A stretch of 64,000 nucleotides of DNA from Candidatus Krumholzibacteriia bacterium (GTDB lineage Bacteria > Krumholzibacteriota > Krumholzibacteriia > JAJRXK01): the NCBI GenBank assembly GCA_041484665.1, contig JBGPIA010000003.1, forward strand, positions 192,001 to 256,000, written 5' to 3'. Shown piece after piece: positions 52,259 through 64,000 of this stretch. A program made the position numbers and the translations under genes. The notes below the pieces were generated by a model. That model searched no databases and had not been told where the DNA came from. It worked only from the letters and a program-made list of their open reading frames with translations. The first letter of the stretch is position 1; each line of letters starts with the position of its first letter.

Positions 52259-53254
52259 CTAGCGCAACGCCGCGCCCGCGGCTGCGGGTTGCGGCAGGAA
52301 CGCCATCCGCACCGAGAAGCGATGCGTGTCCTGGAAGTCGTTCTTGTTGACCAGGTACGCGTAGTCGACGTCGAAGATGCCGCGGTGGAAGCCGGCGCCA
52401 AACGTGGCCCCCAACGTGTCGTAGGCGAATCGGTTGCCGGCGCGCAGCGCGAACGCCTCGTGCAGGCGCAGCTCGGCGCCGGCGTGCAGGCGGGCGTTGC
52501 CGTCGTTGGGGACGACGACCTCGCCGGCCAGGGTCAGGCGCCGCAGGAACGCGGGTGCGCTGGACTGTCCCGCGTAGCTGGCTCCCAGACGCAGCGTGAC
52601 GGGCAGATCGAACTCCTCCTGATTCAGCTTCATCTTGCGCCCGTAGTTCTGCAGGCAGGCGGCGAGCGTCAGTCCAGGGATCTGCGAGCGGTGGGAGATC
52701 CCTAGGTCGACAGCCACGCCCGATCCGTCATACACGTCGATGCGCTGGTAGAGGAACTTCCCGACGATCCCCACCGAGACATCCTTGAAATCGTAGGCGT
52801 AGCCCAGCCCCACGGCGATATCGTAGGGGCGGAAGCTGCCACGCTGCACGCCGACCGGCTCCTCGTCGTAGCGCGGGATGAAGTCGCTGTAGAAACCGCT
52901 GAAGGAGAGGCCCAGCGCGCCGGCGGGAGTATTGTGGCTGACGGCGAAGCTCTCCTGGCGGAAGTCCTGGAAGTACTCCAGGTGCTGGAGCGACACCTGC
53001 GTGCCCTTGGCGTTGACCAGGTTGGCGGGATTCCAGTACGCGGCCGTGGCGTCGGTGGCGCCCGCGACGCCGGTGTCGCCCATGGCGCCAGCGCGGGCGC
53101 CCATGCCCAGCCGCAGCGAGAGCAGGCCGGCGCTGCCCGGGTCGCCGGCCAAAGCGGACACGGGCGGCAGCACCAGCGCGGCGGCCGCAGCCAGCGCCAG
53201 CGCGGTCAACGCGGCACGCGCGCGCCATGGATGGTGGAACCTGCCTGCACTCAT
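52259..53254 (-). CDS. PorV/PorQ family outer-membrane protein
   Basis: GGAGGAG RBS; LRLGMGARAGAMG...DATAAYWNPANL; LPVTLRLG; DVDYAY...THRFSV. Confidence 0.88.
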   Translation of the reverse strand: MSAGRFHHPWRARAALTALALAAAAALVLPPVSALAGDPGSAGLLSLRLGMGARAGAMGDTGVAGATDATAAYWNPANLVNAKGTQVSLQHLEYFQDFRQESFAVSHNTPAGALGLSFSGFYSDFIPRYDEEPVGVQRGSFRPYDIAVGLGYAYDFKDVSVGIVGKFLYQRIDVYDGSGVAVDLGISHRSQIPGLTLAACLQNYGRKMKLNQEEFDLPVTLRLGASYAGQSSAPAFLRRLTLAGEVVVPNDGNARLHAGAELRLHEAFALRAGNRFAYDTLGATFGAGFHRGIFDVDYAYLVNKNDFQDTHRFSVRMAFLPQPAAAGAALR

Positions 53255-53301
53255 CGCGTGACTCCTCCGCGGTCGCCGGGAAGGCGCTCCGCTCGTCCTG
53301 G

Positions 53302-53331
53302 AGTATACCGGCCGCACGATGGCGGCATCAA
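53302..53331 (-). promoter_or_regulatory. Possible sigma70-type promoter for the PorV gene
   Basis: TTGATG-N18-TATACT. Confidence 0.5.
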
Positions 53332-53352
53332 TCGAGCTCTCCCGCTCGTCTC

Positions 53353-56300
53353 TCAACGCGCTACCGCAAACGTCGCCACCGCCGCGTCGCCGTTGACGCG
53401 CAGGCGGCAGACGTAGTACCCGCTCGCCAGCCCCGCCACCGAGATCGGCTCGTCGTAGAGCGCCGGTGCGACGATCTCGACCCTCGGCAGGGCGCGCACC
53501 TGCTGGCCCTCGAGGTTGTACACAGCTCCCTCCACGCGCCCAGGGCGCAGGATCTCCGCGCGCACGCGGACCGTGGGTCCCGTTACCGGATTCGGATAGA
53601 CCGCCAGCGTCTTGCCCTGGATCGACGCCCCGCCGCTGGGCGCGGCCGCGTCGGTGCTCAGGCGCTGCACGCCGCTGTTCCAGGCATCCCCTCGGCCTTG
53701 CGGCCAAGGCGCGAAGGTGTCGGCGGGTACGTCGAGAGCGTAGACGCGCAGCTCCCCCTCGCGCCGCGTGACGACCGCGGTCTGCGCCGGAATCGTCTGG
53801 ATGAGCGCGTCGAATGCGCCGGCTGCCACCAGCTCCAGCGATCCGTCGCCGTCGAGGTCGGCGACGGCCGGCGCGCCGGCGGGCTCCGCGGGACCGGCGA
53901 ACGGCCAGCCGGGCAGGGCCTGTACTTGCCGCTGATCGACGGCGTGGAGGCGTCCCACCGGGTCCTGCCAGAGGAGCTCGGCCTGGCCGTCTGAGTCGAG
54001 ATCGACCATCAGGGGAGCCACCAGCGCCGGTGCGCCGGCCGGGTGCCCTCCGGCGTAGGCCGGCCGATAGGGGCCGCCCGTGCGCACGCGCAGCGCGCGG
54101 TCCAGGGGCAGCAGCGCGCTGCCGGTAGCGTAGGCGATCACCGGCTCGCCCGCAGCCCGCAGCGGACCAGCGGCGAGCCCCGACCAGGGCGACGGCTGCG
54201 GATCCCCGGCGACCGGCGCCGGTGAGGCCGCGGCGCCGCTGACGGCCGGCGGGGCCGCACGGATCGCCGTGAGCGCGGCGCCAAGCAGGAGTCCCATCCG
54301 TTGTGCGCGCCCCAGCGAATCGACCCACGCGACGTCGACGTCGTCAGAGGAGGGAGCGAAGCGGGAGGCCAGCATTGGCACTGCGGCGATGCGGCCCGTT
54401 ACCGGCACCGTGCCCAGCAAGCCCAGCCCGAGCTCGGCGGTCACGATCTGATCCTGCGCGGCGCCCCGCAGCCCGAACGCGAACGTCACGGCCGCGCCCT
54501 GCGGGCCGCGCGGCACGACGAGCAGCTCAGAGGCCGGCGTGCCGGACAGGAGCGGCGTGACTGCCTGCACCGCAGGGCCCGGTGGGCCCCCGCTGCATGC
54601 GTCCAGACCGGACAGGAAGAACGTGACGAGCTGCGTCTCGCCGGCCGCGGAGACGCTGAGCTGGACGATCTCGATCGGCGAGCGCGGCCCGGCCGAGGCG
54701 AACGCGCCGCACAAGGGACGCAGCACCGGCGCCCCCACGAAGGTGCTCGCACCGGCGGGAATGAGCACCCCCCACGTGGCGGGATTCGCATCGCCGTCCT
54801 GGAACTCTGCGCCGGTGCTGCCGACGAACGCGTAGACGCCGTCCGCGCTGGCCAACACCACTTCGAGCACGCCGTCGCCGTCCAGGTCTCCCACGGCCGG
54901 AGGCCCTAGCCATTGCGGCGGCCCGTTGGGCCCGCGCGCCAGCGCCAGCACGCCGGTGGTCGACGGATCGTGGTCGCCATCGACCCAGTCGCCCAGATCC
55001 GCGGTGAATACATACACGGCGCCGCTGTCGCCGGCTGCGATGATCTGCATGCCGGGCGCATCGTTGGGCAGCAGGTCGGCCACCCGCAGGTCGAAGCGGG
55101 GCGCGCGGCGGGGCAGCCGCCGCCGGGACCGCTCGTGCACGCGCGGTGGGGCCGCTCCAGCGCGGCTGAGCCCAAGGGTCATGGTACCGTCGTAGACGAT
55201 GGCCTGCAGCTGGCCCGAGCTGAGGACGGAGTCGAGGGCGACGCGACTGATCTGGGAGAATGCGATGCCGGTCGGCGCGCCGTCGGCGGTGTCCGTGGCG
55301 GGCAGCGTGTCGGGGCCGAAGCGGCTGGCGCCCTCGCCGCGGAACGCGTCACCGTCCCAGCCGAGGAAATAGACCGACGGCTTGGCAGAATCGAGATCCT
55401 GGATGCCGTCGGCCTCCTCTAGGTCGACCCCCTTGTGGGCGGGGTCGGCGTTGATCCGGTTGCTGCCCGTGCGAACGGCGTCCTCGATCACGCGCTCGTC
55501 GACGTGCCAGACGTAGAGCCCGCTGCCCCGTCCGCGCCGGTATCGTGGGCCGTCGAGCCACTCGCTCATGGCGAAGTCCCACTCGGCGCCCTCGGTGTTC
55601 TCCCAGGTGTCCACGCCGGGCGTGAACGGCGACGTGGGAAAGCCGTTGGTGCTGTCGCTACCCGCATCGTAGTAATCAGGGAAACCGTCGTGGTTGAGAT
55701 CGCCGGGAAAGGTGAAGCGCAGATTTCCGTCCGGGTCCTGCAGCCGGTACTCGGCCAGCCAGTATTCCCGACTGTTGATGGGCACCTTGAGAAGCAGCGT
55801 GTCGGCGATGGTCGTGGCCGTGGCCCCCAGCCTCAATTGCAGGGTCTCGCCCAGGGCGGGCACCGCCTCCACGGGTTCGGCCCAGCCCATCAGCGCGCGG
55901 TTCATGGCCGAAGGCTCGGCCGGGATCAGCCCGATCCCCGCGAACAGGCCGTAGCTCATCAGGTCGAATTGGCCGGCGCCCTGGCTATCGGGCGATCCAG
56001 CCGGCGTGAAGTCGGCCAGGTTGAGCATCCCCAGCCGTAAACCGAACTCGAAGCAGTAGACGCCGAGGGTGCCGAAGAAGCCGTCGGAGAGCCCGGGCAC
56101 GGGATCCTGACTCTCGCTCTCGGGCAGCACGAGCACGTGCTCTACGTCGACGCCGTCACCGGTCGGCAGGCGCGCGTCGGGCAGCGCTCCCGCCTGGAAG
56201 GCGGCCTTATAATCGCGGGCGTCGAGATAGTTGCTGAAGATCTGCGCCGGGCTGTCCTGGAGGATGTCGGTCTCCTGCCCCGCTCCGGCGTGGATCAGCA

Positions 56301-57003
56301 CCAGCGTGTCGTAGCGGCTGAAGTCGACCTGCGGGTCGATGGCGGCGATCGCGTCGCGCGCCATCTCCACCACGTGCACGCTGGAGGTGTCGTCGTCGCC
56401 GTAGTAGCCCATGGGCCTCGGCAGATTCACGAGCGAGCCCAGCACGTTCCAGCGCATGTGGAATCGGCCGCGGCTCACCGTCGCGAGGTAGTCGCGCACT
56501 CGCTGCATCTGCACGTCGAAATAGGCCGAGTCATGCGCGGTGAACTCGTAGACGGCCCGGCCCTGGAAGGCGAAGAGCGGCCCCAGGTAGTGGCCGTGTC
56601 GCGTCTGGGGTGGCCAGCCCGGGAACTCCGCCAGGTTGCGCCCCCACAGCAGGCTGTCGCTGAAGTCGCAGCCCACGACCAGCAGGCGCAGCGAGTCGGG
56701 GCCCGCGCGGCGCTGCAAGGCCGTACGCTGCGAGAGTGTCAGCTGCCTGGGGAGCAGCCGGCGACCGCACTGCAGCAGCAGCCGGGCGCGCTGCGGGAGG
56801 AGCTCCCCGTGCGGGCGCGGCGGCGCTGACGCTGCACCGCCGGCGCGCGGGAGCACGGCGACCGCAGCCGCGACTGCCACGGCCACGGCAGCGGCTGCCA
56901 CCACGGCGAGCGAGCGCCCGGCGGCGATGGCGCTCGCATCGCGCTTGCGTCGCGGTGGCGTGCGCGGTGGCGTGTGCGGCTCTGGAATGCGCGGTTCGGG
57001 CAC
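53353..57003 (-). CDS. Secreted M6 (immune inhibitor A)-like protease homologue with degenerate zinc site, FG-GAP repeats and T9SS-like C-terminal domain
   Basis: LIHAGAGQE, DLMSYG, MGW, EYWLAEYR, GLYVWHVDE, VDLEEADG; DLDGDG repeats; AVYPNPV...LASGYYVCRL. HExxH position reads FEFGL. Confidence 0.82.
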   Translation of the reverse strand: MPEPRIPEPHTPPRTPPRRKRDASAIAAGRSLAVVAAAAVAVAVAAAVAVLPRAGGAASAPPRPHGELLPQRARLLLQCGRRLLPRQLTLSQRTALQRRAGPDSLRLLVVGCDFSDSLLWGRNLAEFPGWPPQTRHGHYLGPLFAFQGRAVYEFTAHDSAYFDVQMQRVRDYLATVSRGRFHMRWNVLGSLVNLPRPMGYYGDDDTSSVHVVEMARDAIAAIDPQVDFSRYDTLVLIHAGAGQETDILQDSPAQIFSNYLDARDYKAAFQAGALPDARLPTGDGVDVEHVLVLPESESQDPVPGLSDGFFGTLGVYCFEFGLRLGMLNLADFTPAGSPDSQGAGQFDLMSYGLFAGIGLIPAEPSAMNRALMGWAEPVEAVPALGETLQLRLGATATTIADTLLLKVPINSREYWLAEYRLQDPDGNLRFTFPGDLNHDGFPDYYDAGSDSTNGFPTSPFTPGVDTWENTEGAEWDFAMSEWLDGPRYRRGRGSGLYVWHVDERVIEDAVRTGSNRINADPAHKGVDLEEADGIQDLDSAKPSVYFLGWDGDAFRGEGASRFGPDTLPATDTADGAPTGIAFSQISRVALDSVLSSGQLQAIVYDGTMTLGLSRAGAAPPRVHERSRRRLPRRAPRFDLRVADLLPNDAPGMQIIAAGDSGAVYVFTADLGDWVDGDHDPSTTGVLALARGPNGPPQWLGPPAVGDLDGDGVLEVVLASADGVYAFVGSTGAEFQDGDANPATWGVLIPAGASTFVGAPVLRPLCGAFASAGPRSPIEIVQLSVSAAGETQLVTFFLSGLDACSGGPPGPAVQAVTPLLSGTPASELLVVPRGPQGAAVTFAFGLRGAAQDQIVTAELGLGLLGTVPVTGRIAAVPMLASRFAPSSDDVDVAWVDSLGRAQRMGLLLGAALTAIRAAPPAVSGAAASPAPVAGDPQPSPWSGLAAGPLRAAGEPVIAYATGSALLPLDRALRVRTGGPYRPAYAGGHPAGAPALVAPLMVDLDSDGQAELLWQDPVGRLHAVDQRQVQALPGWPFAGPAEPAGAPAVADLDGDGSLELVAAGAFDALIQTIPAQTAVVTRREGELRVYALDVPADTFAPWPQGRGDAWNSGVQRLSTDAAAPSGGASIQGKTLAVYPNPVTGPTVRVRAEILRPGRVEGAVYNLEGQQVRALPRVEIVAPALYDEPISVAGLASGYYVCRLRVNGDAAVATFAVAR

Positions 57004-57012
57004 GAGGCGGGC

Positions 57013-57042
57013 AGTATAGGGAGAGGACACAGAGGGGGTCAA
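57013..57042 (-). promoter_or_regulatory. Sigma70-type promoter for the M6-like gene
   Basis: TTGACC-N18-TATACT, 10 nt before the GTG at 57003. Confidence 0.6.
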
Positions 57043-57198
57043 CCGCGCGGCCCGCGGGCGCTGCGAACGCTGCACACGCGGCCGGCGTGCCCGGCGTGGC
57101 GCGCGCGGCGTGCGCTGCCGGCGGACGGCACTGGCCACCCAGCCCAAGACGCGAGCGCGGCGCTCCGGATTGCGGACGCGCCGCGCGCGCAAGAATCG

Positions 57199-57265
57199 GG
57201 AAGAGGAACGTCGGGCCCTCCATCGTCGCCCCTGATCGACATTTCCGGCCCTTCGTTCCTCTTCC
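57199..57265. repeat. Long imperfect inverted repeat
   Basis: GGAAGAGGAACG/CGTTCCTCTTCC (12 bp perfect) enclosing GGGCC/GGCCC and GTCG/CGAC. Confidence 0.75.
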
Positions 57266-57358
57266 ACCATCGAGGGTCCCCCGCGGCCCGCCCCTCTCCC
57301 CTCCTCCCGCGCTCGGCTGCCAACCATCGCAGGACGGGGACCGGGGTGCGAAGCCCCT

Positions 57359-57380
57359 GCCCCTTCCACAGGGAAGGGGT
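57359..57380 (-). terminator. Terminator-like hairpin after the DUF4384 gene
   Basis: CCCCTTCC-N4-GGAAGGGG about 35 nt after the stop codon; no U-tract. Confidence 0.45.
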
Positions 57381-57413
57381 CGGAGGGCCCTGTTCAAACC
57401 GTTCGGGTCTCTT

Positions 57414-59234
57414 CTACGAGCGACCTCCGCGCGGTGCTCCACGCTCAGCGGAGCTGCGTCCTGCGCCGCCATCGCGGCCGCCGCGATCCGCGGCTCCGTG
57501 GCGGGAGTCTCCACCGCCGCGGGGCGACGGAGCCTGGCGCGGCGCTGGCGCCGACCGCGGCGGAGGAGCCTGGGGAGCCGGCGCGCTCGACCGGGGCGGC
57601 GGAGCCACCTCCGGCGGGGGCGCCTGGCGCGGCGGCGGCGCGACTTGCTCACTGCGGCTGGGTCGCGGCGCCGGCGGGCCGGGCTCTGTACTCGCACCTC
57701 GCCCGCTGTCGTCCTGATCGCCTCGCGAGCGTGCGCCGGGCGCGGTCCCGTCGCGCGGCGGCGAAACGACCTTCCGCGGTGGACCGCCGCGGTCAGGCCC
57801 GCGCTCGCTGTTACGGATGACCGGGCGCGTCCAGCGGCGCGCGCCGGTGTCACGGCTCTCGCCCGAGCGCGGTTGCGGCGCGACCCGCGTCTCGCCGCCC
57901 GAGCGGTCCGTGCCGTCGTCTCCGTGGGCCGGCGACGGCAGGCTGCGAACGCTGCGCTCGCGGCGCACCACGGCGTCGGTGCGGACGCCGCCCCCGGTCT
58001 CGCGCGGCACCAGCGCCGTCGAGCGGTGCGGCGCCGGCAGCGGCGCTGTACGCTCCCGGTCCGGCAGTCGGCCGAGGCCGCGATCGGCGGGCGCGGTCAT
58101 GCGACCGCCGCCCCCGGCGCTTGCAACGCGCGCGCGCGCGATGCTGGGAGGCTCGCCGCCGCGGATGGCCTGCCTGCCGAAGCGCCGCTCGCTCGCCGGT
58201 CCGTCGACCGCGTACAGCGGCGCCGTCACCGCGGCGCCGTGCCGGTAGCGGACGAGGTAGTCACCGCGGTAGTACGGGCTATCGTTCCACGACCAGAGCG
58301 GGTAGGAGCGCACGTAGACGCCGCTCCCCGGCCAGCGGTAGCACACCGGGTAGTACCAGAAGTAGTACGGCCGGCACCCCACCAGATCCCAGTAGTAGAA
58401 CGGAGGATCGTAGAAGAGCGGGTAGTAGCCGTACCGTCCCCACCAGCCCGAGTACCAGCCCCAGTCGTAGTGAACCGACACCTGCGTGCAGGTGTCCACG
58501 TACGGGTGGACGGTGCGCCCGTCGTCACCGTGGCACTGGGAGCAAGCGTAGCGCGGGTAGTCGACCCGGCTGTCGACATACACGTGACTCCAGTCGGTAA
58601 CGATATAGTCGACGTCCTGCTCGAGGCCGGTGATGGCATAGTTCACGTCGTTCACGGCCAGGAACGGGTCCCCCGCGACTTTGTGTCGGTAGTGCTCCTG
58701 CTCATCGGGATCGAACGCGAAGTCGATCGCGAGGTTGCGCAGGTCGAATGGATAGCGGCTGGCGAGCGCCTCGACGTACTCGACACCCTTGCTGAGGCTG
58801 GCGTGCAGGCGATGCGTGGCGCCCGCGGGCGGCAGCGTGTAGGCGTGTCCGCCGTACACGAAGCCGTCGTTGTAGCGGGTGGCCGGCCAGAGCACCTCGG
58901 CCACGCCGTCTGCGTCAATGCGGTAGACGACGACGTAGGCGTCGGCATTGGTGCGGAAGTGGAAGCCAATGGCCTCCCCGCGCTGGTAGACTTCGTCCTC
59001 ACCCTTGTCGTGCCAGACCTGGATGCGCAGATCCCGGTCCGCGCCCGCCTCTGCCGTGCTCGCCTCGGCCTTGCTGGCCGCCGCCTTTGCGGTGTCCTGG
59101 TCGGCCGCGCGATCCTCCCCCTGCACCCAGAGGGCAGCCAGGTCCACGCGCGCAGTGTCCGCCCACGCGAGGGCCGGGACAAACGGGAGGACGGCGAGGA
59201 GGACGCCGATCGAAACGTGTAGCTTCGCGCTCAT
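57414..59234 (-). CDS. Secreted DUF4384-domain protein with Tyr/Trp-rich middle and Pro/Arg-rich tail
   Basis: Signal peptide; VYQRGEAIGFHFRTNADAYVVVYRIDADG.AEVLWP (DUF4384 pattern); CSQCH; low-complexity C-terminus; ATGA-coupled. Confidence 0.8.
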   Translation of the reverse strand: MSAKLHVSIGVLLAVLPFVPALAWADTARVDLAALWVQGEDRAADQDTAKAAASKAEASTAEAGADRDLRIQVWHDKGEDEVYQRGEAIGFHFRTNADAYVVVYRIDADGVAEVLWPATRYNDGFVYGGHAYTLPPAGATHRLHASLSKGVEYVEALASRYPFDLRNLAIDFAFDPDEQEHYRHKVAGDPFLAVNDVNYAITGLEQDVDYIVTDWSHVYVDSRVDYPRYACSQCHGDDGRTVHPYVDTCTQVSVHYDWGWYSGWWGRYGYYPLFYDPPFYYWDLVGCRPYYFWYYPVCYRWPGSGVYVRSYPLWSWNDSPYYRGDYLVRYRHGAAVTAPLYAVDGPASERRFGRQAIRGGEPPSIARARVASAGGGGRMTAPADRGLGRLPDRERTAPLPAPHRSTALVPRETGGGVRTDAVVRRERSVRSLPSPAHGDDGTDRSGGETRVAPQPRSGESRDTGARRWTRPVIRNSERGPDRGGPPRKVVSPPRDGTAPGARSRGDQDDSGRGASTEPGPPAPRPSRSEQVAPPPRQAPPPEVAPPPRSSAPAPQAPPPRSAPAPRQAPSPRGGGDSRHGAADRGGRDGGAGRSSAERGAPRGGRS

Positions 59235-60196
59235 CGCGACCCCTCCTCGGGTGTCGGCACGACCTTGCCTCCGCTTGGGACGGACAGCTCGATCAGGCCA
59301 GGCACCGGTTGATACGCCCAGTAGACGCCGACGTAGTCGGGAGTCCGCTCCACGACGGTGATCTTGGCGTAGTTGTGGTCTCCGGACAGAGCCGGGGATT
59401 GGAAGATCTTGATCGCGTACGTGTGGTCCACGACCGCTTCGACTTTGCCGGCGATGGACCAGCCGCTCGTGGGCGCCAGGCTCAGGTCGTCGAAGGAGGC
59501 CAGGCCGAAGTCCTGGATCTGCACGCGATCGGGATTTGCGTAAAAGTAGCCGACCCGCTGAGCGCCGACCAACTCGGAGCCGAACCACAGGTCGGTGCTC
59601 GACAGCGAGTAGAGCTGCGCCTGATCCGACAGGCTGCTGAAGTCGTAGCCTGAGAACTGCGCGTTCTGGAGGGACAGGGCCTGGTCGTAGAGCTTGAGCG
59701 CGCTCTGCACCTGCTCGGGGCGCGGCGTGTCCACGACGTAGTCCAAGCTCAGGCCGCTCTCGTTGTTGGTGTGGTCGAACGCGCTCACGGCGTAGTAGTA
59801 GTCCACCCCGTTGGTCAGCCCGGTGTCCGCGTACTCGACGAAATCATCGCCGGGCGCGCTGGTCGCGCCAGGCTGCAGGTGATCGATGGCCGTGATCTCG
59901 GCGATCATCGTGAATTTGCTGCTGCCGTCGGTGTTGCTGAAGATCCGGTAGCCAGCGAGGTCCGGCTCGCGGTCGGGGATCCAGCGCAAGTAGATCGCAT
60001 GGTCGCCTGTAATGCTGTGCACGCCGCCAGGTATGGCCGGTGGCGTCGCGTCCACGAAACCCTTCTCGTGATCGTTGCAGCCACCCAGGGTCGCGATCGC
60101 CAGCGCCCCGAGCGCGGCGGCGAGCGTCCGTGACCCGGCTGAGACTTTGAGCGTGGCTCTTCGCGAGCCAAAGACACTGCTGCTGTGCCTACGCAT
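59231..60196 (-). CDS. Lipoprotein with FN3 domain
   Basis: GGAGGAGG RBS; lipobox LGGC; PPAIPGGV..GDHAIYLRW..EPDLAGYRIF...YYYAVSAFDHTNNES. Confidence 0.85.
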   Translation of the reverse strand: MRRHSSSVFGSRRATLKVSAGSRTLAAALGALAIATLGGCNDHEKGFVDATPPAIPGGVHSITGDHAIYLRWIPDREPDLAGYRIFSNTDGSSKFTMIAEITAIDHLQPGATSAPGDDFVEYADTGLTNGVDYYYAVSAFDHTNNESGLSLDYVVDTPRPEQVQSALKLYDQALSLQNAQFSGYDFSSLSDQAQLYSLSSTDLWFGSELVGAQRVGYFYANPDRVQIQDFGLASFDDLSLAPTSGWSIAGKVEAVVDHTYAIKIFQSPALSGDHNYAKITVVERTPDYVGVYWAYQPVPGLIELSVPSGGKVVPTPEEGSR

Positions 60197-60255: not shown

Positions 60256-60271
60256 GGCACCGCCCGTGCCA
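60256..60271 (-). promoter_or_regulatory. Sigma54 -24/-12 promoter for the lipoprotein-DUF4384 operon
   Basis: TGGCACGGGCGGTGCC (GG-N10-GC). Confidence 0.62.
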
Positions 60272-60345: not shown

Positions 60346-60550
60346 AGAAGCGAATTGCCAGCACGCGGGGACTGGTGCTGGTGGCGGCGGCGCTGCGGCC
60401 GGGGCCCGGCTGTACGCGCCCCGCAGCCCCGTACGTGCCCCGCGGGGGACAGCCCCCTGTCCTCTGGCTGGGACAGCCGGGAGCGCGAGCCTGCGCAACC
60501 ATGGCCGGGGCGGCGGGGCGCTTCGGTGGTAGCGGTGCGCGGCCGGCCGC

Positions 60551-60584
60551 AGAAGCAAAGGGCCGCCCCGGAGGAGGCGGCCCT
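60551..60584 (-). terminator. Intrinsic terminator of the candidate ncRNA
   Basis: AGGGCCGCC-tcctccgg-GGCGGCCCT followed by TTGCTTCT. Confidence 0.72.
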
Positions 60585-60935
60585 CGCACAAATGAGAGAG
60601 GGTGCGCAGTACCGGGAACCGCCCCAGTCGTGCCGCTCCTGGATCTCGCCATTCCAAGAGGGCGAAAGCGGCTCCTATGTTGGTGTCAGCGCACCCTTCT
60701 CGCCTGATGCGGAGGATTTCGAAGGATGGTCAGGAACGGATGCCTTCCTTCACTCCACCGCGCTCAACCCTGTGACCCCACCTCACAAGACAAGCGTGGT
60801 AGACCCAACTTGGAAGGGTCTCCTCATACAGCCGGTTAACCGAGAGGAGCCGCTCCCTTCCATCCTTCGAAACTCTCGAGCCCTCACGGGCTGCTTTGGA
60901 CGACCGGACCACGACTGCCAGTAGTGCCCGGCGCT
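60551..60935 (-). ncRNA. Candidate sigma54-dependent structured non-coding RNA (~385 nt)
   Basis: Bounded by a -24/-12 promoter and a terminator. No credible ORF. Multiple perfect long-range helices (13, 10 and 9 bp) and a GUGA tetraloop hairpin. Confidence 0.62.
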
Positions 60936-60945
60936 GGATCTCCAG

Positions 60946-60961
60946 TGCAGCCAACGTGCCA
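60946..60961 (-). promoter_or_regulatory. Sigma54 -24/-12 promoter
   Basis: TGGCACGTTGGCTGCA versus consensus TGGCACGNNNNTTGCW; predicted +1 near 60935 (A). Confidence 0.8.
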
Positions 60962-60999
60962 GGGAGGTCGTCCGCTAGCAGGTTCGTAAGTGCAATATG

Positions 61000-61012
61000 T
61001 TTCAACAAGTTC
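61000..61012 (+). promoter_or_regulatory. IHF-like site between enhancer and sigma54 promoter
   Basis: TTTCAACAAGTTC with an AT-rich 5' flank (TAAGTGCAATATG). Confidence 0.55.
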
Positions 61013-61062
61013 TGGAGGCGGACGCCGACCGGCGATCGTCTGCCGACGGGCGCCCCGGAGCG

Positions 61063-61081
61063 CTAGCAAACACCTTGATAG
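61063..61081. promoter_or_regulatory. Candidate enhancer (UAS) palindrome 1
   Basis: CTAGCAAA-cac-CTTGATAG. Confidence 0.68.
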
Positions 61082-61104
61082 GGCGCTCATCGGGGGAACC
61101 AGGC

Positions 61105-61127: not shown

Positions 61128-61133
61128 ATCGGC

Positions 61134-61152
61134 CTAGCAAATGATTTGATAG
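61134..61152. promoter_or_regulatory. Candidate enhancer (UAS) palindrome 2
   Basis: CTAGCAAA-tga-TTTGATAG, 71 bp from copy 1. Confidence 0.68.
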
Positions 61153-61164
61153 CGGGCGGTCGTG

Positions 61165-64000
61165 CTATGCCGGCGCGTGTAGACCGTAAAGCTTGATCTT
61201 CTGGAGCAGCGTGGGATAGCTGATGCACAGCCTTCGCGAGACCTCAGCGCGGTTCCAGCCGGTGATGGCGAGGGCCTCCGCCAGGACTCTACGTTCCAGT
61301 TCGGCCACCTGAGCGCGCAGCGGCAAGGGCCCGCCGGCTTCGCTGGACGCGCCGTCCTCCGCCTCGCTGCCGAGCGCGTCCTCGCGCAGCCGCGGCGGGA
61401 GGTGCACCATGCGCAGCTGCAGCTCGCCCGCGGCCAGGATCACCGTGCGCCTGATCGCCTTCTCCAGCTCACGCACATTGCCGGGCCACGCGTACGCGCG
61501 CAGGCACTCGGCGAAGCTGCGCGTCATCGTCGGCAGCGGGCGGCCGAGCTCGGCGCAGGTCTGCGCGATGAAGTGCTCGGCCAAGAGCAGCACGTCCTCC
61601 GGACGCTCGCGCAGTGGCGGCACGTGCACTGGGAAATCGAGCATGCGGTAGTACAGGTCCTCCAGGAATTCGTCGCGCTCGACCATCGCGCGGAGGTCCT
61701 GCTTGCTCGCGCACAGGATCCGCACGTCGACGGCCCGCTCGACCGTGCCACCGACCGGCCGCACCAGCTTGGTGTCGAGGAAGTGGAGGAGCTTGGCCTG
61801 CATCGGCAGGCTCATCTTTCCCACCTCGTCGAGGAACAGCGTACCGCGCTCGGTGCCCACGATCAGGCCCGGTTTGTCCCTGTCCGCTCCAGTGAACGCA
61901 CCGCGCACGTAGCCGAAGAGCTCGCTTTCCAGCAGCGTGTCCGGGATCGCTGCGCAGTTGACCGTGAGGAACGTGCGGTCGCGGCGCGCGCTGAGCTCGT
62001 GTACGGCGCGGGCGAACAGGCCCTTGCCGGTGCCCGTCTCGCCGGTGAACAGCACGGTGTACGGCGAGTCGGCCACCTTTGCGCAGAGCTCGAGAACTTC
62101 GAGGATCTTGTCGCTGTGGGTGAGGATGTCCTTGAAGGCCTCTTCGGAGCGGGGAGACGGCGCCGACGCCGCGGGAGCGTCCAGGGCCGTAGCGGTGTCC
62201 AGCAGCGCGGGCCGCAGCAGATTCACGTAGGTCGAGGCCACGGCCAGCGCCTCGGAGCTCAGCGGCTGCGGCTCCCCGGTGCGCTCAAAGTAGACGATCC
62301 CGCGCAGGCCTTCCCCGGCGCGCAGCGGGAAGGCCACGGCCACCGAGACCTCGCCGATGTCCACGCCCAGAGCCTCACGCCACGCGGGCTCTGCCTGCGG
62401 GCGCGTCCAGACGCGCGGCCCGTCACACGCCGCGCAGCTGGGGAGCTGGGACAGCACGTGGGCCGCGGTGCGCCGCGCGCGGGCGCGGGCCATGCGCGAC
62501 GCAGCCACCAGCTGCACGCGTCCTCCGGGTCCGCGCAGTGCCACCAGGCCGCGCTCGCCGCCCATACGCTCCATGACCGCCGAGAGCATGGCCGAGGCGC
62601 TCTGGGCCAGCCCTTCGCCTCCCTGCAGCAGCGGATCGCCCAGGTTGGCCAGCTCCTGGTAACGGGTAGTGGCGACGCGTGCATGGGAGGACATGGCCGC
62701 CTCGATGCGAGCGCGCAGCTCCTCGATGTCACCGGTGACGCCCTCGACGCCCAGGCAGCTCATGCGCTCCACCTCGAACAACGCGAGCAGCGCCTCGTCG
62801 TGGTTTCCCAGCTCGAGCTCCACGCGAGCCAGCGCGAGCTGCAACCGGCACGGCGCAGTGTCGGCGTCGGCGGCCGCCAGATCGACCGCTTCGCGCAACA
62901 ACCCGCGCGCCGCGAGCAGCTGCGTCCGCCCGCCGTGCTGCACGTGGAGATCCGCCAGCAACTCCAGCGTCACGCCGATCTCGACCGGCAGCCGGTAGGC
63001 GCGGAAGCGGTTGAGGGCCTCTTGCAGAGCGGAGCCCGCCTCCTCCACGCGCCCGCAGGCCAGCAGCGCCTGGCCGCGCACACGCTCGAGAAACCCCAGC
63101 TCGTACTGCTCGCCGCAACCGCGGCCCACCGCGGTTCCTGCGGCGGCCAACTGGGTGGCGGCCAGGGCATCGCCGCGCTGCAGGGCCAGTTGCGCCTGGC
63201 GCCGCAACACCTCGGCCAGCACGTCGTTTCCGCCGGAGATCTCGCGCGCGCGGGTCTCGGCGATGCCATAGTTGAGCTCCGCCTCGTCGAAGCGGCCCCG
63301 GGCCGCCATCAGATCGCCGAGGAACTCATCGGCCAGGGCGGTCTCGCGCAGCGAGCCATTACGCTCGGCGAGAACGCGCGCTTCGAGCAGATTGCGCTCC
63401 GCGTCGGCGAACTTGCCTTCCTCGATCTGGAGCTGCGCGTGGAGCAGGCGCAGCTTGGTGATCAGCCCCTGGTCGCCCAGGCTGCGCGCCATCTCACTGC
63501 CGCGCAGCACGCAAGCCAGCGCGTCGGCGCGCCGGCCCATCTTGCGGTAGAGCACCGCCTTGTTGAGGTGCAACGCGCCCAGCTCGTGCGCGGAGCCTAC
63601 CGCGCGCATCAGCTCCTCGGCCCGGTCGAAGAGCTGGATCGCGCGCGACCAGCGGCAGGCGTTCTTGGCCAGCAGCGCGAGGTTGCTCAACACCTGGGCC
63701 TGGCCGGTCACGTGCTCGATGCGCCGGTAGGTGGCCAGCGCGTCCTGGTAGAACTCCTCCGCCTTCTCGGCCCGGCCCAGGCGGAACCAGCAGCCCCCGA
63801 GAATGGTCTGGGCGTTGCCCACCTCGACGTGCGCATCGGTCGTCGCGAGTGTGGCGAACGCGTCGCGCGCAAGCTCGGCGGCTTCCTCGTAACGCGCCAT
63901 GCGGTAGAGCAGCAGGGCGCGACGCACCTGGACGGGGGCCTGCAGCTGTGGCGTGGAGCCGGCCAGCAGGTCCGCCGCAGCGTCGAGCTGCGCCGCGCAT
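61165..64000 (-). CDS. Sigma54-dependent activator with N-terminal TPR array, GAF-like, AAA+ and Fis-type HTH domains (5' end beyond window)
   Basis: TPR repeats; GETGTGK, NCAAIP..LLESELFG, intact GAFTGA, LFLDEV, WPGNVRELEK, C-terminal HTH. Frame stays open to 64000. Confidence 0.93.
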   Translation of the reverse strand, partial: CAAQLDAAADLLAGSTPQLQAPVQVRRALLLYRMARYEEAAELARDAFATLATTDAHVEVGNAQTILGGCWFRLGRAEKAEEFYQDALATYRRIEHVTGQAQVLSNLALLAKNACRWSRAIQLFDRAEELMRAVGSAHELGALHLNKAVLYRKMGRRADALACVLRGSEMARSLGDQGLITKLRLLHAQLQIEEGKFADAERNLLEARVLAERNGSLRETALADEFLGDLMAARGRFDEAELNYGIAETRAREISGGNDVLAEVLRRQAQLALQRGDALAATQLAAAGTAVGRGCGEQYELGFLERVRGQALLACGRVEEAGSALQEALNRFRAYRLPVEIGVTLELLADLHVQHGGRTQLLAARGLLREAVDLAAADADTAPCRLQLALARVELELGNHDEALLALFEVERMSCLGVEGVTGDIEELRARIEAAMSSHARVATTRYQELANLGDPLLQGGEGLAQSASAMLSAVMERMGGERGLVALRGPGGRVQLVAASRMARARARRTAAHVLSQLPSCAACDGPRVWTRPQAEPAWREALGVDIGEVSVAVAFPLRAGEGLRGIVYFERTGEPQPLSSEALAVASTYVNLLRPALLDTATALDAPAASAPSPRSEEAFKDILTHSDKILEVLELCAKVADSPYTVLFTGETGTGKGLFARAVHELSARRDRTFLTVNCAAIPDTLLESELFGYVRGAFTGADRDKPGLIVGTERGTLFLDEVGKMSLPMQAKLLHFLDTKLVRPVGGTVERAVDVRILCASKQDLRAMVERDEFLEDLYYRMLDFPVHVPPLRERPEDVLLLAEHFIAQTCAELGRPLPTMTRSFAECLRAYAWPGNVRELEKAIRRTVILAAGELQLRMVHLPPRLREDALGSEAEDGASSEAGGPLPLRAQVAELERRVLAEALAITGWNRAEVSRRLCISYPTLLQKIKLYGLHAPA

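Follow-up and report, generated by a model that had tools for sequence, protein, structure and literature searches.

In Pseudomonas, the sigma54 activator CbrB is followed by a long small RNA, CrcZ, which is an A-rich decoy of Hfq and Crc. RNAIII of the Staphylococcus aureus agr system codes for a peptide, and its transcription depends on a two-component system instead of sigma54. The sections of its description available to us present it as a large multi-hairpin RNA with conserved loops, which makes loop-loop contacts near ribosome-binding sites and for which Hfq is dispensable (PMC2837412). In Vibrio, the Qrr RNAs repress the translation of luxO, which encodes a phosphorelay response regulator, and Hfq is needed, according to the portion of the source at hand (PMC2632942). 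In Myxococcus, as far as the accessible part of the report goes, the NtrC-like gene pxrR (nla19) lies directly upstream of the pxr RNA gene, across a 260-bp spacer that holds a sigma54 promoter and an enhancer region, and Pxr, found in a host without hfq and linked to a kinase-response regulator pair, has a functional loop and three stem-loops (PMC5684412). In the excerpted accounts of the RRNPP systems (Rap/Phr, NprR/NprX and arbitrium, AimP-AimR-AimX), a small secreted precursor is encoded beside a TPR regulator, and arbitrium comprises a peptide, a receptor and a regulated output.

The window analyzed here, a stretch of 64,000 nucleotides from a Candidatus Krumholzibacteriia genome (G000), contains a structured non-coding RNA gene at 60551..60935 (~385 nt, both ends predicted). 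It is located between the end of the gene for a TPR-sigma54 activator (EBP) at 61165 and a lipoprotein-like gene that begins at 60196, and, like the features of its promoter and of both neighbors, it lies on the minus strand. By analogy, its circuit appears to be like Qrr-luxO in logic, like RNAIII in build and like pxrR-pxr in gene order, and the RNA falls outside each of the compared systems (LuxO-Qrr, RNAIII, Pxr, CrcZ and arbitrium). As described for LuxO and Qrr in the part of that source at hand (PMC2632942), a sigma54 activator would drive an RNA that pairs, here as judged by sequence, with the activator's own mRNA. The complementarity to the activator's start region that is typical of Qrr RNAs is present, and their sigma54 promoter with activator sites has its counterpart here in sequence conservation only. 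Unlike Qrr, this RNA is multi-domain and 280-520 nt long across its relatives, its activator has a TPR domain, and Hfq had no match in G000 (the one, incomplete genome searched); it has no sequence or Rfam likeness to the Qrr family, and membership was rejected for want of an Hfq match and an Rfam match. It shares with RNAIII, as partially sourced, the multi-hairpin build and the conserved loops (PMC2837412), but the C-rich loops of RNAIII bind G-rich Shine-Dalgarno sequences, whereas here G-rich loops match C-rich leader loops. With Pxr it shares the order of activator and RNA gene (PMC5684412); the three stem-loops and the kinase-response regulator pair differ, this RNA has no Pxr match in Rfam, and no peptide gene is named in the accessible part of the Pxr report. 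The succession of a sigma54 activator and a long small RNA also recalls the available descriptions of CbrB-CrcZ, yet this RNA, unlike CrcZ, is tightly folded and has G-rich seeds. A small secreted precursor beside a TPR regulator is likewise a feature of RRNPP systems, but here a sigma54 ATPase serves as the output domain, outer-membrane-type genes are present in the host and the TPR likeness is generic.

The RNA is a stand-alone structured, covarying gene of a new family without an Rfam match, and the interval is almost certainly transcribed. Its minimum free energy (MFE) of −220.5 kcal/mol is far lower than that of shuffled sequences (−174 ± 6; z −7.5; 0 of 100 shuffles as good), and three homologues fold with z values of −5.7, −4.0 and −4.1. 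Its GC content is 62%, compared to 71% for the EBP gene and 65% for the downstream gene. It is single-copy in G000, in which neither blastn nor model R1 detected a paralogue. From its 5′ end, the RNA consists of a 5′ hairpin (60899..60934), whose GGCAGUC loop and 3′ arm are kept in family f1 only and whose region carries lineage-specific seeds in other families; a GNRA-type hairpin (60879..60892) with a covarying stem and a variable loop; domain 2 (60717..60872), built from a long closing helix, a three-way junction and two hairpins; domain 3 (60599..60697), a long hairpin; and a terminator-like hairpin with a weak U tail (60559..60585). The helices checked among those named in the first-pass annotation (13 bp, 60860-72/60717-29; 9 bp, 60689-97/60599-607; GNRA hairpin, 60879-92) are present as it described them. 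Of the intrinsic terminator that it proposed, the hairpin at 60585-60559 stands, while the U tail is weak and a consensus scan listed no terminator; the 3′ ends of many f2 homologues are U-rich runs.

Across homologues, the stems vary and the loops are constant. The constant loops are the ACCGGC motif (60831..60836), detected in 34 of the 34 f1 and f2 RNAs counted; the A[GGUGGGG]U hairpin loop (60775..60783), whose GUGGG core occurs in every family sampled; and the GGCGAGA seed within a 9-nt loop (60644..60650), which is the complement of UCUCGCC in the EBP leader. In an alignment of 30 loci, which was fitted to the model, whose rows are related by kinship and 20 of whose 30 rows were unused in deriving the structure, 90.8% of the cells are paired versus 41-53% in slid controls, and double (compensatory) changes are found in 45 of the 53 pairs. 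The apical hairpin of domain 3 is 93% paired with double changes in 7/7 pairs, and the long-range helices of this domain differ among homologues. Twelve homologues have no ORF in common. The earlier reading of the interval as a stand-alone RNA gene without a credible ORF, whose homologues should show compensatory changes, is thus borne out. A separate 3′ hairpin module, with a C-rich loop (CCCCUCC) complementary to Shine-Dalgarno-like sequence, is found in f4, f7, f9 and two f8 genomes (L249, ~1080-1145).

The predicted transcription start (60935) is preceded by a sigma54 −24/−12 box, TGGCACGTTGGCTGC (60947..60961), in which GG and TG are invariant in 30/30 aligned promoters and the final C is kept in 29; the sigma54 promoter noted at first sight is therefore confirmed by its conservation. 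The box is accompanied by two palindromic sites, located ~200 and ~130 nt upstream, as well as by IHF-like blocks rich in AT: an AT-rich imperfect palindrome to which the EBP may bind (61133..61153), its near-repeat (61062..61082) and an AT-rich block with a putative IHF function (60985..61012) are all conserved in alignment A6. We regard the palindromes as putative UAS and the AT-rich block as a putative IHF site. Three metatranscriptome studies yielded contigs that are 95-97% alike to the RNA and wholly inside it (60702-60924, 60732-60922 and 60724-60882), and, among the contigs listed, the only long near-identical ones in the three metatranscriptomes are those inside the RNA. Of the 18 listed differences between contigs and RNA, 9 leave an MFE pair intact, 4 disrupt one and 5 fall at unpaired positions. 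Because the selection of the RNA runs involved this stretch, only part of the contigs is listed, and the contigs, possibly DNA-derived, come without strand or ends, they amount to a hint only. The metatranscriptome check that had been suggested thus gave contigs in the right place and neither the strand nor the 5′ and 3′ ends.

At the gathering threshold of Rfam 15, the RNA locus gave only below-gathering rows, none above chance, and below-gathering rows were also all that was obtained for 16 loci of f1, f2, f4, f5, f8 and f9 and for 5 more loci. The absence of a known identity, as first asserted, therefore holds. RNase P RNA and tmRNA are both located elsewhere in G000. Identity with 6S RNA was rejected, given that the locus has no RF00013 match and that its fold is multi-domain rather than a single rod with a central bubble; RF00013 has no match anywhere in G000 (93.65% complete). 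For SRP RNA, the negative Rfam scan of the locus is the only coverage. No description of the RNA or of the module was found in the openly accessible literature searched, and the supplements of large non-coding RNA surveys could list the motif.

In each of the nine sampled families of the phylum (f1 to f9), the RNA is located behind the same TPR-sigma54 activator gene, and the EBP gene is upstream in 29 of 30 loci, the exception being at a contig end. By blastn, the RNA was detected in 8 of 9 same-family genomes, and the ninth was recovered via its EBP gene. Model R1, built from 10 sequences, found it in 35 of 151 genomes of the class, and model R2 in 9/9 f1 and 40/43 f2 genomes, with weak but syntenic rows in 4 of 13 f8 genomes; single R2 rows in f4 and f5 are not syntenic, and weak rows in G066 and G100 and second matches in G155 and G122 were dropped for the same reason. 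A draw across the phylum placed the RNA in 55/61 f2 genomes. Anchoring on neighboring genes revealed that f4, f5 and f9 have divergent forms at this position, and queries with divergent forms matched 30/36 f4, 1/1 f9, 6/7 f7 (3′ element only), 17/20 f5 and 10/10 f8 genomes, with no match in f3 and f6. The lipoprotein gene failed as an anchor for f3, f6, f7 and one f4 contig end. When the f3 and f6 genomes were opened at the EBP orthologue, a promoter box and a folded RNA with a GUGGGG loop were present in 2/2 and 3/3, respectively. A pattern scan of genome contigs gave 51 loci, 5 of them with full-length scores above 140 bits (three labeled Ca. Krumholzibacteriota/-iia and two "uncultured bacterium"); the other 46 were rejected as short pattern matches of at most 28.2 bits or loci without a row. 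Model R2 had 0 matches in 80 metagenome loci of generic sigma54 activators, a scan too unspecific to widen the range, and two weak TPR matches were all that five genomes from outside the phylum yielded.

Two further places in G000, which has ~25 sigma54 activator genes, resemble this locus. A 2.6-kb contig (G000:C54:1-2570, L316) has the same layout, with the C-terminus of an activator with a like HTH, an activator-site motif at 949, sigma54 boxes at 1138 and 1584, a ~290-nt folded RNA with G-rich loops between the boxes and a lipoprotein paralogue. This RNA had no match in 170 other genomes or in Rfam, and the contig is either a paralogue or foreign. Behind another TPR-sigma54 gene (G000:C4:35300-36500, L317), a short ORF, two activator-site motifs and a sigma54 box accompany a ~190-nt stretch, possibly a second sigma54 RNA, that ends in a hairpin and precedes a kinase-like gene.

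As indicated by complementarity in several lineages, the RNA very probably pairs with the mRNA of the EBP. In f1 and f2, the RNA loop GGCGAG matches CUCGCC in the EBP leader in 33 of 34 loci. In G000, the UCUCGCC site is 20 to 14 nt before the EBP AUG, adjoining the Shine-Dalgarno sequence and just outside the window (G000:C3:256283-256289). CTCGCC is the most conserved hexamer of these leaders (33/34; Shine-Dalgarno hexamers, 15/34), occurs in 0/29 peptide leaders and 1/33 lipoprotein leaders used as controls, and is the exact complement of one of the 9 hexamers that 32 or more of the 34 RNAs share. The best accessible RNA-leader helix also falls on the CUCGCC site in 33/34.

In other families, the same mRNA region is matched by different seeds, under rules that were set on the first loci and then tested on 40 new ones. 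The f5 and f8 RNAs have no GGCGAG and their leaders no CUCGCC; there, the 5′ loop UCCCGUGCGU matches EBP codons 3-6 in 5/5 first loci and in 18/19 new ones (the miss is masked), and the seed covers Ala and Arg codons that do not vary in 23/23, with a variable Ser codon before them. The f4 and f9 RNAs start with GGUAUCGGUU, which matches the AUG region in 2/2 first loci; among the new f4 loci, 14/14 scored helices cover the AUG with 10-15 bp and covarying ends, 3 more loci were unparsed with the seed visible by eye, and 1 of 18 was truncated. RNA-leader energies are −17.5 and −18.6 within a lineage versus −9.2 and −8.5 across lineages, and shuffles mostly fall between −8 and −11. A weaker third seed form is found in 3 f7 loci, where 10, 2 and 3 of 60 shuffles were as good, a 10-bp loop-loop match in 2/3 f6 loci, and a match in 1/2 f3 loci; G021 and G029 (2 of the 5 f3/f6 loci) have no strong helix. 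Because kin are not independent, the matches amount to ~4 events at the level of lineages. The f4 and f9 RNAs retain GGCGAG though their own EBP leaders have no CUCGCC, and, with accessibility charged, they score −8.9 and −9.6 on f1/f2 leaders versus −5.5 on their own.

Within G000, ~85 genes, the adjacent EBP gene among them, carry complements of the loops in their start regions, and, when the whole genome is ordered by energy, the EBP leader comes only 747th among 4016. Hundreds of sites are similar, 20 hand-picked candidates have no common theme, and neither rpoN nor IHF/HU nor most other activators were conspicuous as targets. The leader of a gene for a 49-aa DUF5670 protein (G000:C7:192467-192700, L306) is complementary without mismatch over 11 nt to the GGCGAGA loop plus flanking bases and is a candidate second target.

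The complementarity of the seeds to the EBP start region suggests a feedback circuit, in which the effect of the RNA on the EBP is likely to be repression. The same pairing could have the opposite sign in f1 and f2, where the loop contact would open a leader hairpin that hides the Shine-Dalgarno sequence and raise EBP translation, as in positive feedback or auto-induction. In 30 of the 34 f1 and f2 leaders, the target site is predicted to be exposed in the loop of a hairpin in which the Shine-Dalgarno sequence is paired (G000 is one of the 4 in which the site is predicted to be partly paired), and C-rich tracts in the anti-Shine-Dalgarno arm of many f2 leaders could pair with the GGUGGGG loop. 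Moreover, the f1/f2 helix of 6-7 bp is invariant on both sides, so it shows no base-level compensation and its sign could be positive. Against this, a 6-7 bp contact could not easily propagate since the RNA loops are on stable stems, and a seed on the AUG (f4, f7 and f9) or on the first codons (f5 and f8) fits blocking. We therefore regard positive feedback as unlikely.

Somewhat less probable still is that the RNA serves mainly as a decoy or scaffold that binds protein or RNA, as CrcZ does, or that its GGUGGGG loop binds the C-rich 3′ ends of tRNA or tmRNA, with the EBP pairing being secondary. In favor of this, the most widely kept element, the GUGGG loop, has no identified mRNA target, and complements are not enriched near start codons of G000; in a post hoc test, GGUGGGG ranked 12th of 16384 heptamers in pairing to 38 tRNA 3′ ends. 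However, the tRNA register is broken by substitutions in the loop (U at position 1 in several genomes, A at position 7 in one), the acceptor stems of mature tRNAs are already paired, and this reading would leave unexplained why the EBP start is matched in three lineage-specific ways.

A Csr/Rsm sponge, an option that the first-pass annotation had kept because of about nine GGA motifs, is very improbable. The csrA gene is present in G000 and in 43/43 f2 genomes, and many f2 RNAs have one CAGGGA in the loop of the 5′ hairpin (e.g., L061 and L055; the hexamer occurs in 23/34 f1 and f2 RNAs), which resembles a single CsrA site. But all 9 GGA motifs of the G000 RNA are in stems, a single CAGGGA does not make a sponge, and three groups with the RNA gave no csrA match at all (5/5 genomes of genus g2 and the 23 f5 and 13 f8 genomes searched); the option is therefore abandoned.

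The downstream gene (59231..60196), conserved and lipoprotein-like by its N-terminus, which suggested the label, has no Pfam match and is preceded by a second sigma54 box (60257..60271), which argues against the RNA being its leader. The last alternative, a cis element (leader or riboswitch of this gene, or 3′ untranslated region of the EBP mRNA) or a small-protein mRNA, has a negligible probability: the RNA is on the strand of both neighbors and its U tail is weak in f1, but it has its own promoter and terminal hairpin, the lipoprotein gene is not behind it in the five f3 and f6 genomes opened, and the lack of a shared ORF in 12 homologues led us to reject a coding function. In many homologues, a palindromic GGGACA/TGTCCC-type motif (window ~60440-60460) precedes the second box; it is unlike the activator sites of the RNA, and another activator may therefore drive the lipoprotein gene. 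Further downstream on the same strand (52259-59234) are genes for a DUF4384 protein, an FG-GAP protein and a PorV/UPF0164-like protein, possibly an envelope or secretion operon under the second promoter.

On the other side of the RNA, the EBP gene (61165..64000, with its start beyond the window at G000:C3:256269) encodes 1034 aa with Sigma54_activat, HTH_8 and TPR_12 domains (Pfam). Also just outside the window, G000:C3:256383-256727 (minus strand) encodes a 114-aa protein with a GDPDD motif and a signal-peptide-like N-terminus. Such an ORF, ~90-150 aa long, lies 40-120 nt upstream of the EBP start in every complete locus examined. Its product has a hydrophobic N-terminus, in most cases also a hydrophobic helix at the C-terminus, and a short GD(P/A)DDxxG-type motif surrounded by sequence that is not conserved. 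With signal peptides judged by eye, a small secreted precursor is beside the EBP gene in 41/41 first loci and in 39/39 complete new ones, and, with a variant motif, in 5/5 f3 and f6 loci. The GDPDD protein has no Pfam match, and its Atlas look-alikes at 0.77 are a lead only. The TPR profile of the EBP matches Rap and NprR chains weakly (E ~1e-5); because kinesin light chain and other TPRs score higher, the match is generic. By analogy with RRNPP systems, we consider it plausible, if a little short of probable, that the GD(P/A)DD protein is the ligand of the TPR domain. Its role could be that of a pheromone precursor or of an export-state reporter.

On the strength of these comparisons, we hypothesize that the RNA is a sigma54-transcribed, trans-acting base-pairing RNA that forms the output and feedback arm of the adjacent TPR-sigma54 activator, which seems reasonably probable to us as a whole. 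The view of the RNA as the output of the EBP, put forward from the start, stands in its tie to the EBP gene; activation is inferred from synteny and pairing only, from which we judge it likely that the adjacent EBP is the activator. We propose that the EBP would bind the two upstream sites and switch the RNA on, and that the RNA, which probably acts independently of Hfq, would then bind the EBP mRNA and lower EBP translation. The contact would be loop-loop just before the Shine-Dalgarno sequence in f1 and f2, a duplex across the AUG in f4, f7 and f9, and a loop on codons 3-6 in f5 and f8. Other invariant loops (GUGGGG and ACCGGC) would act on further targets, and the circuit may be triggered by the small secreted protein encoded next to the EBP.

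More tentatively, these parts may form a phylum-wide peptide-signaling circuit of novel architecture in diderms, in which a secreted GD(P/A)DD peptide would act through a TPR-sigma54 ATPase on an RNAIII-sized, Hfq-free RNA that controls a regulon via its G-rich loops and feeds back on its own receptor through a seed that evolved anew in at least three lineages. Comparative RNA discovery has seldom delivered a specific, testable target along with a new large RNA family, and three different seeds on one mRNA start region would represent a function that was kept while the sequence was replaced. The RNA-leader pairs can be tested in Escherichia coli reporters, for which culture of the host is unnecessary. 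If the upstream protein is the ligand, an uncultured diderm phylum would have coupled peptide-TPR signaling of the Gram-positive and phage type to sigma54 and to an effector RNA.
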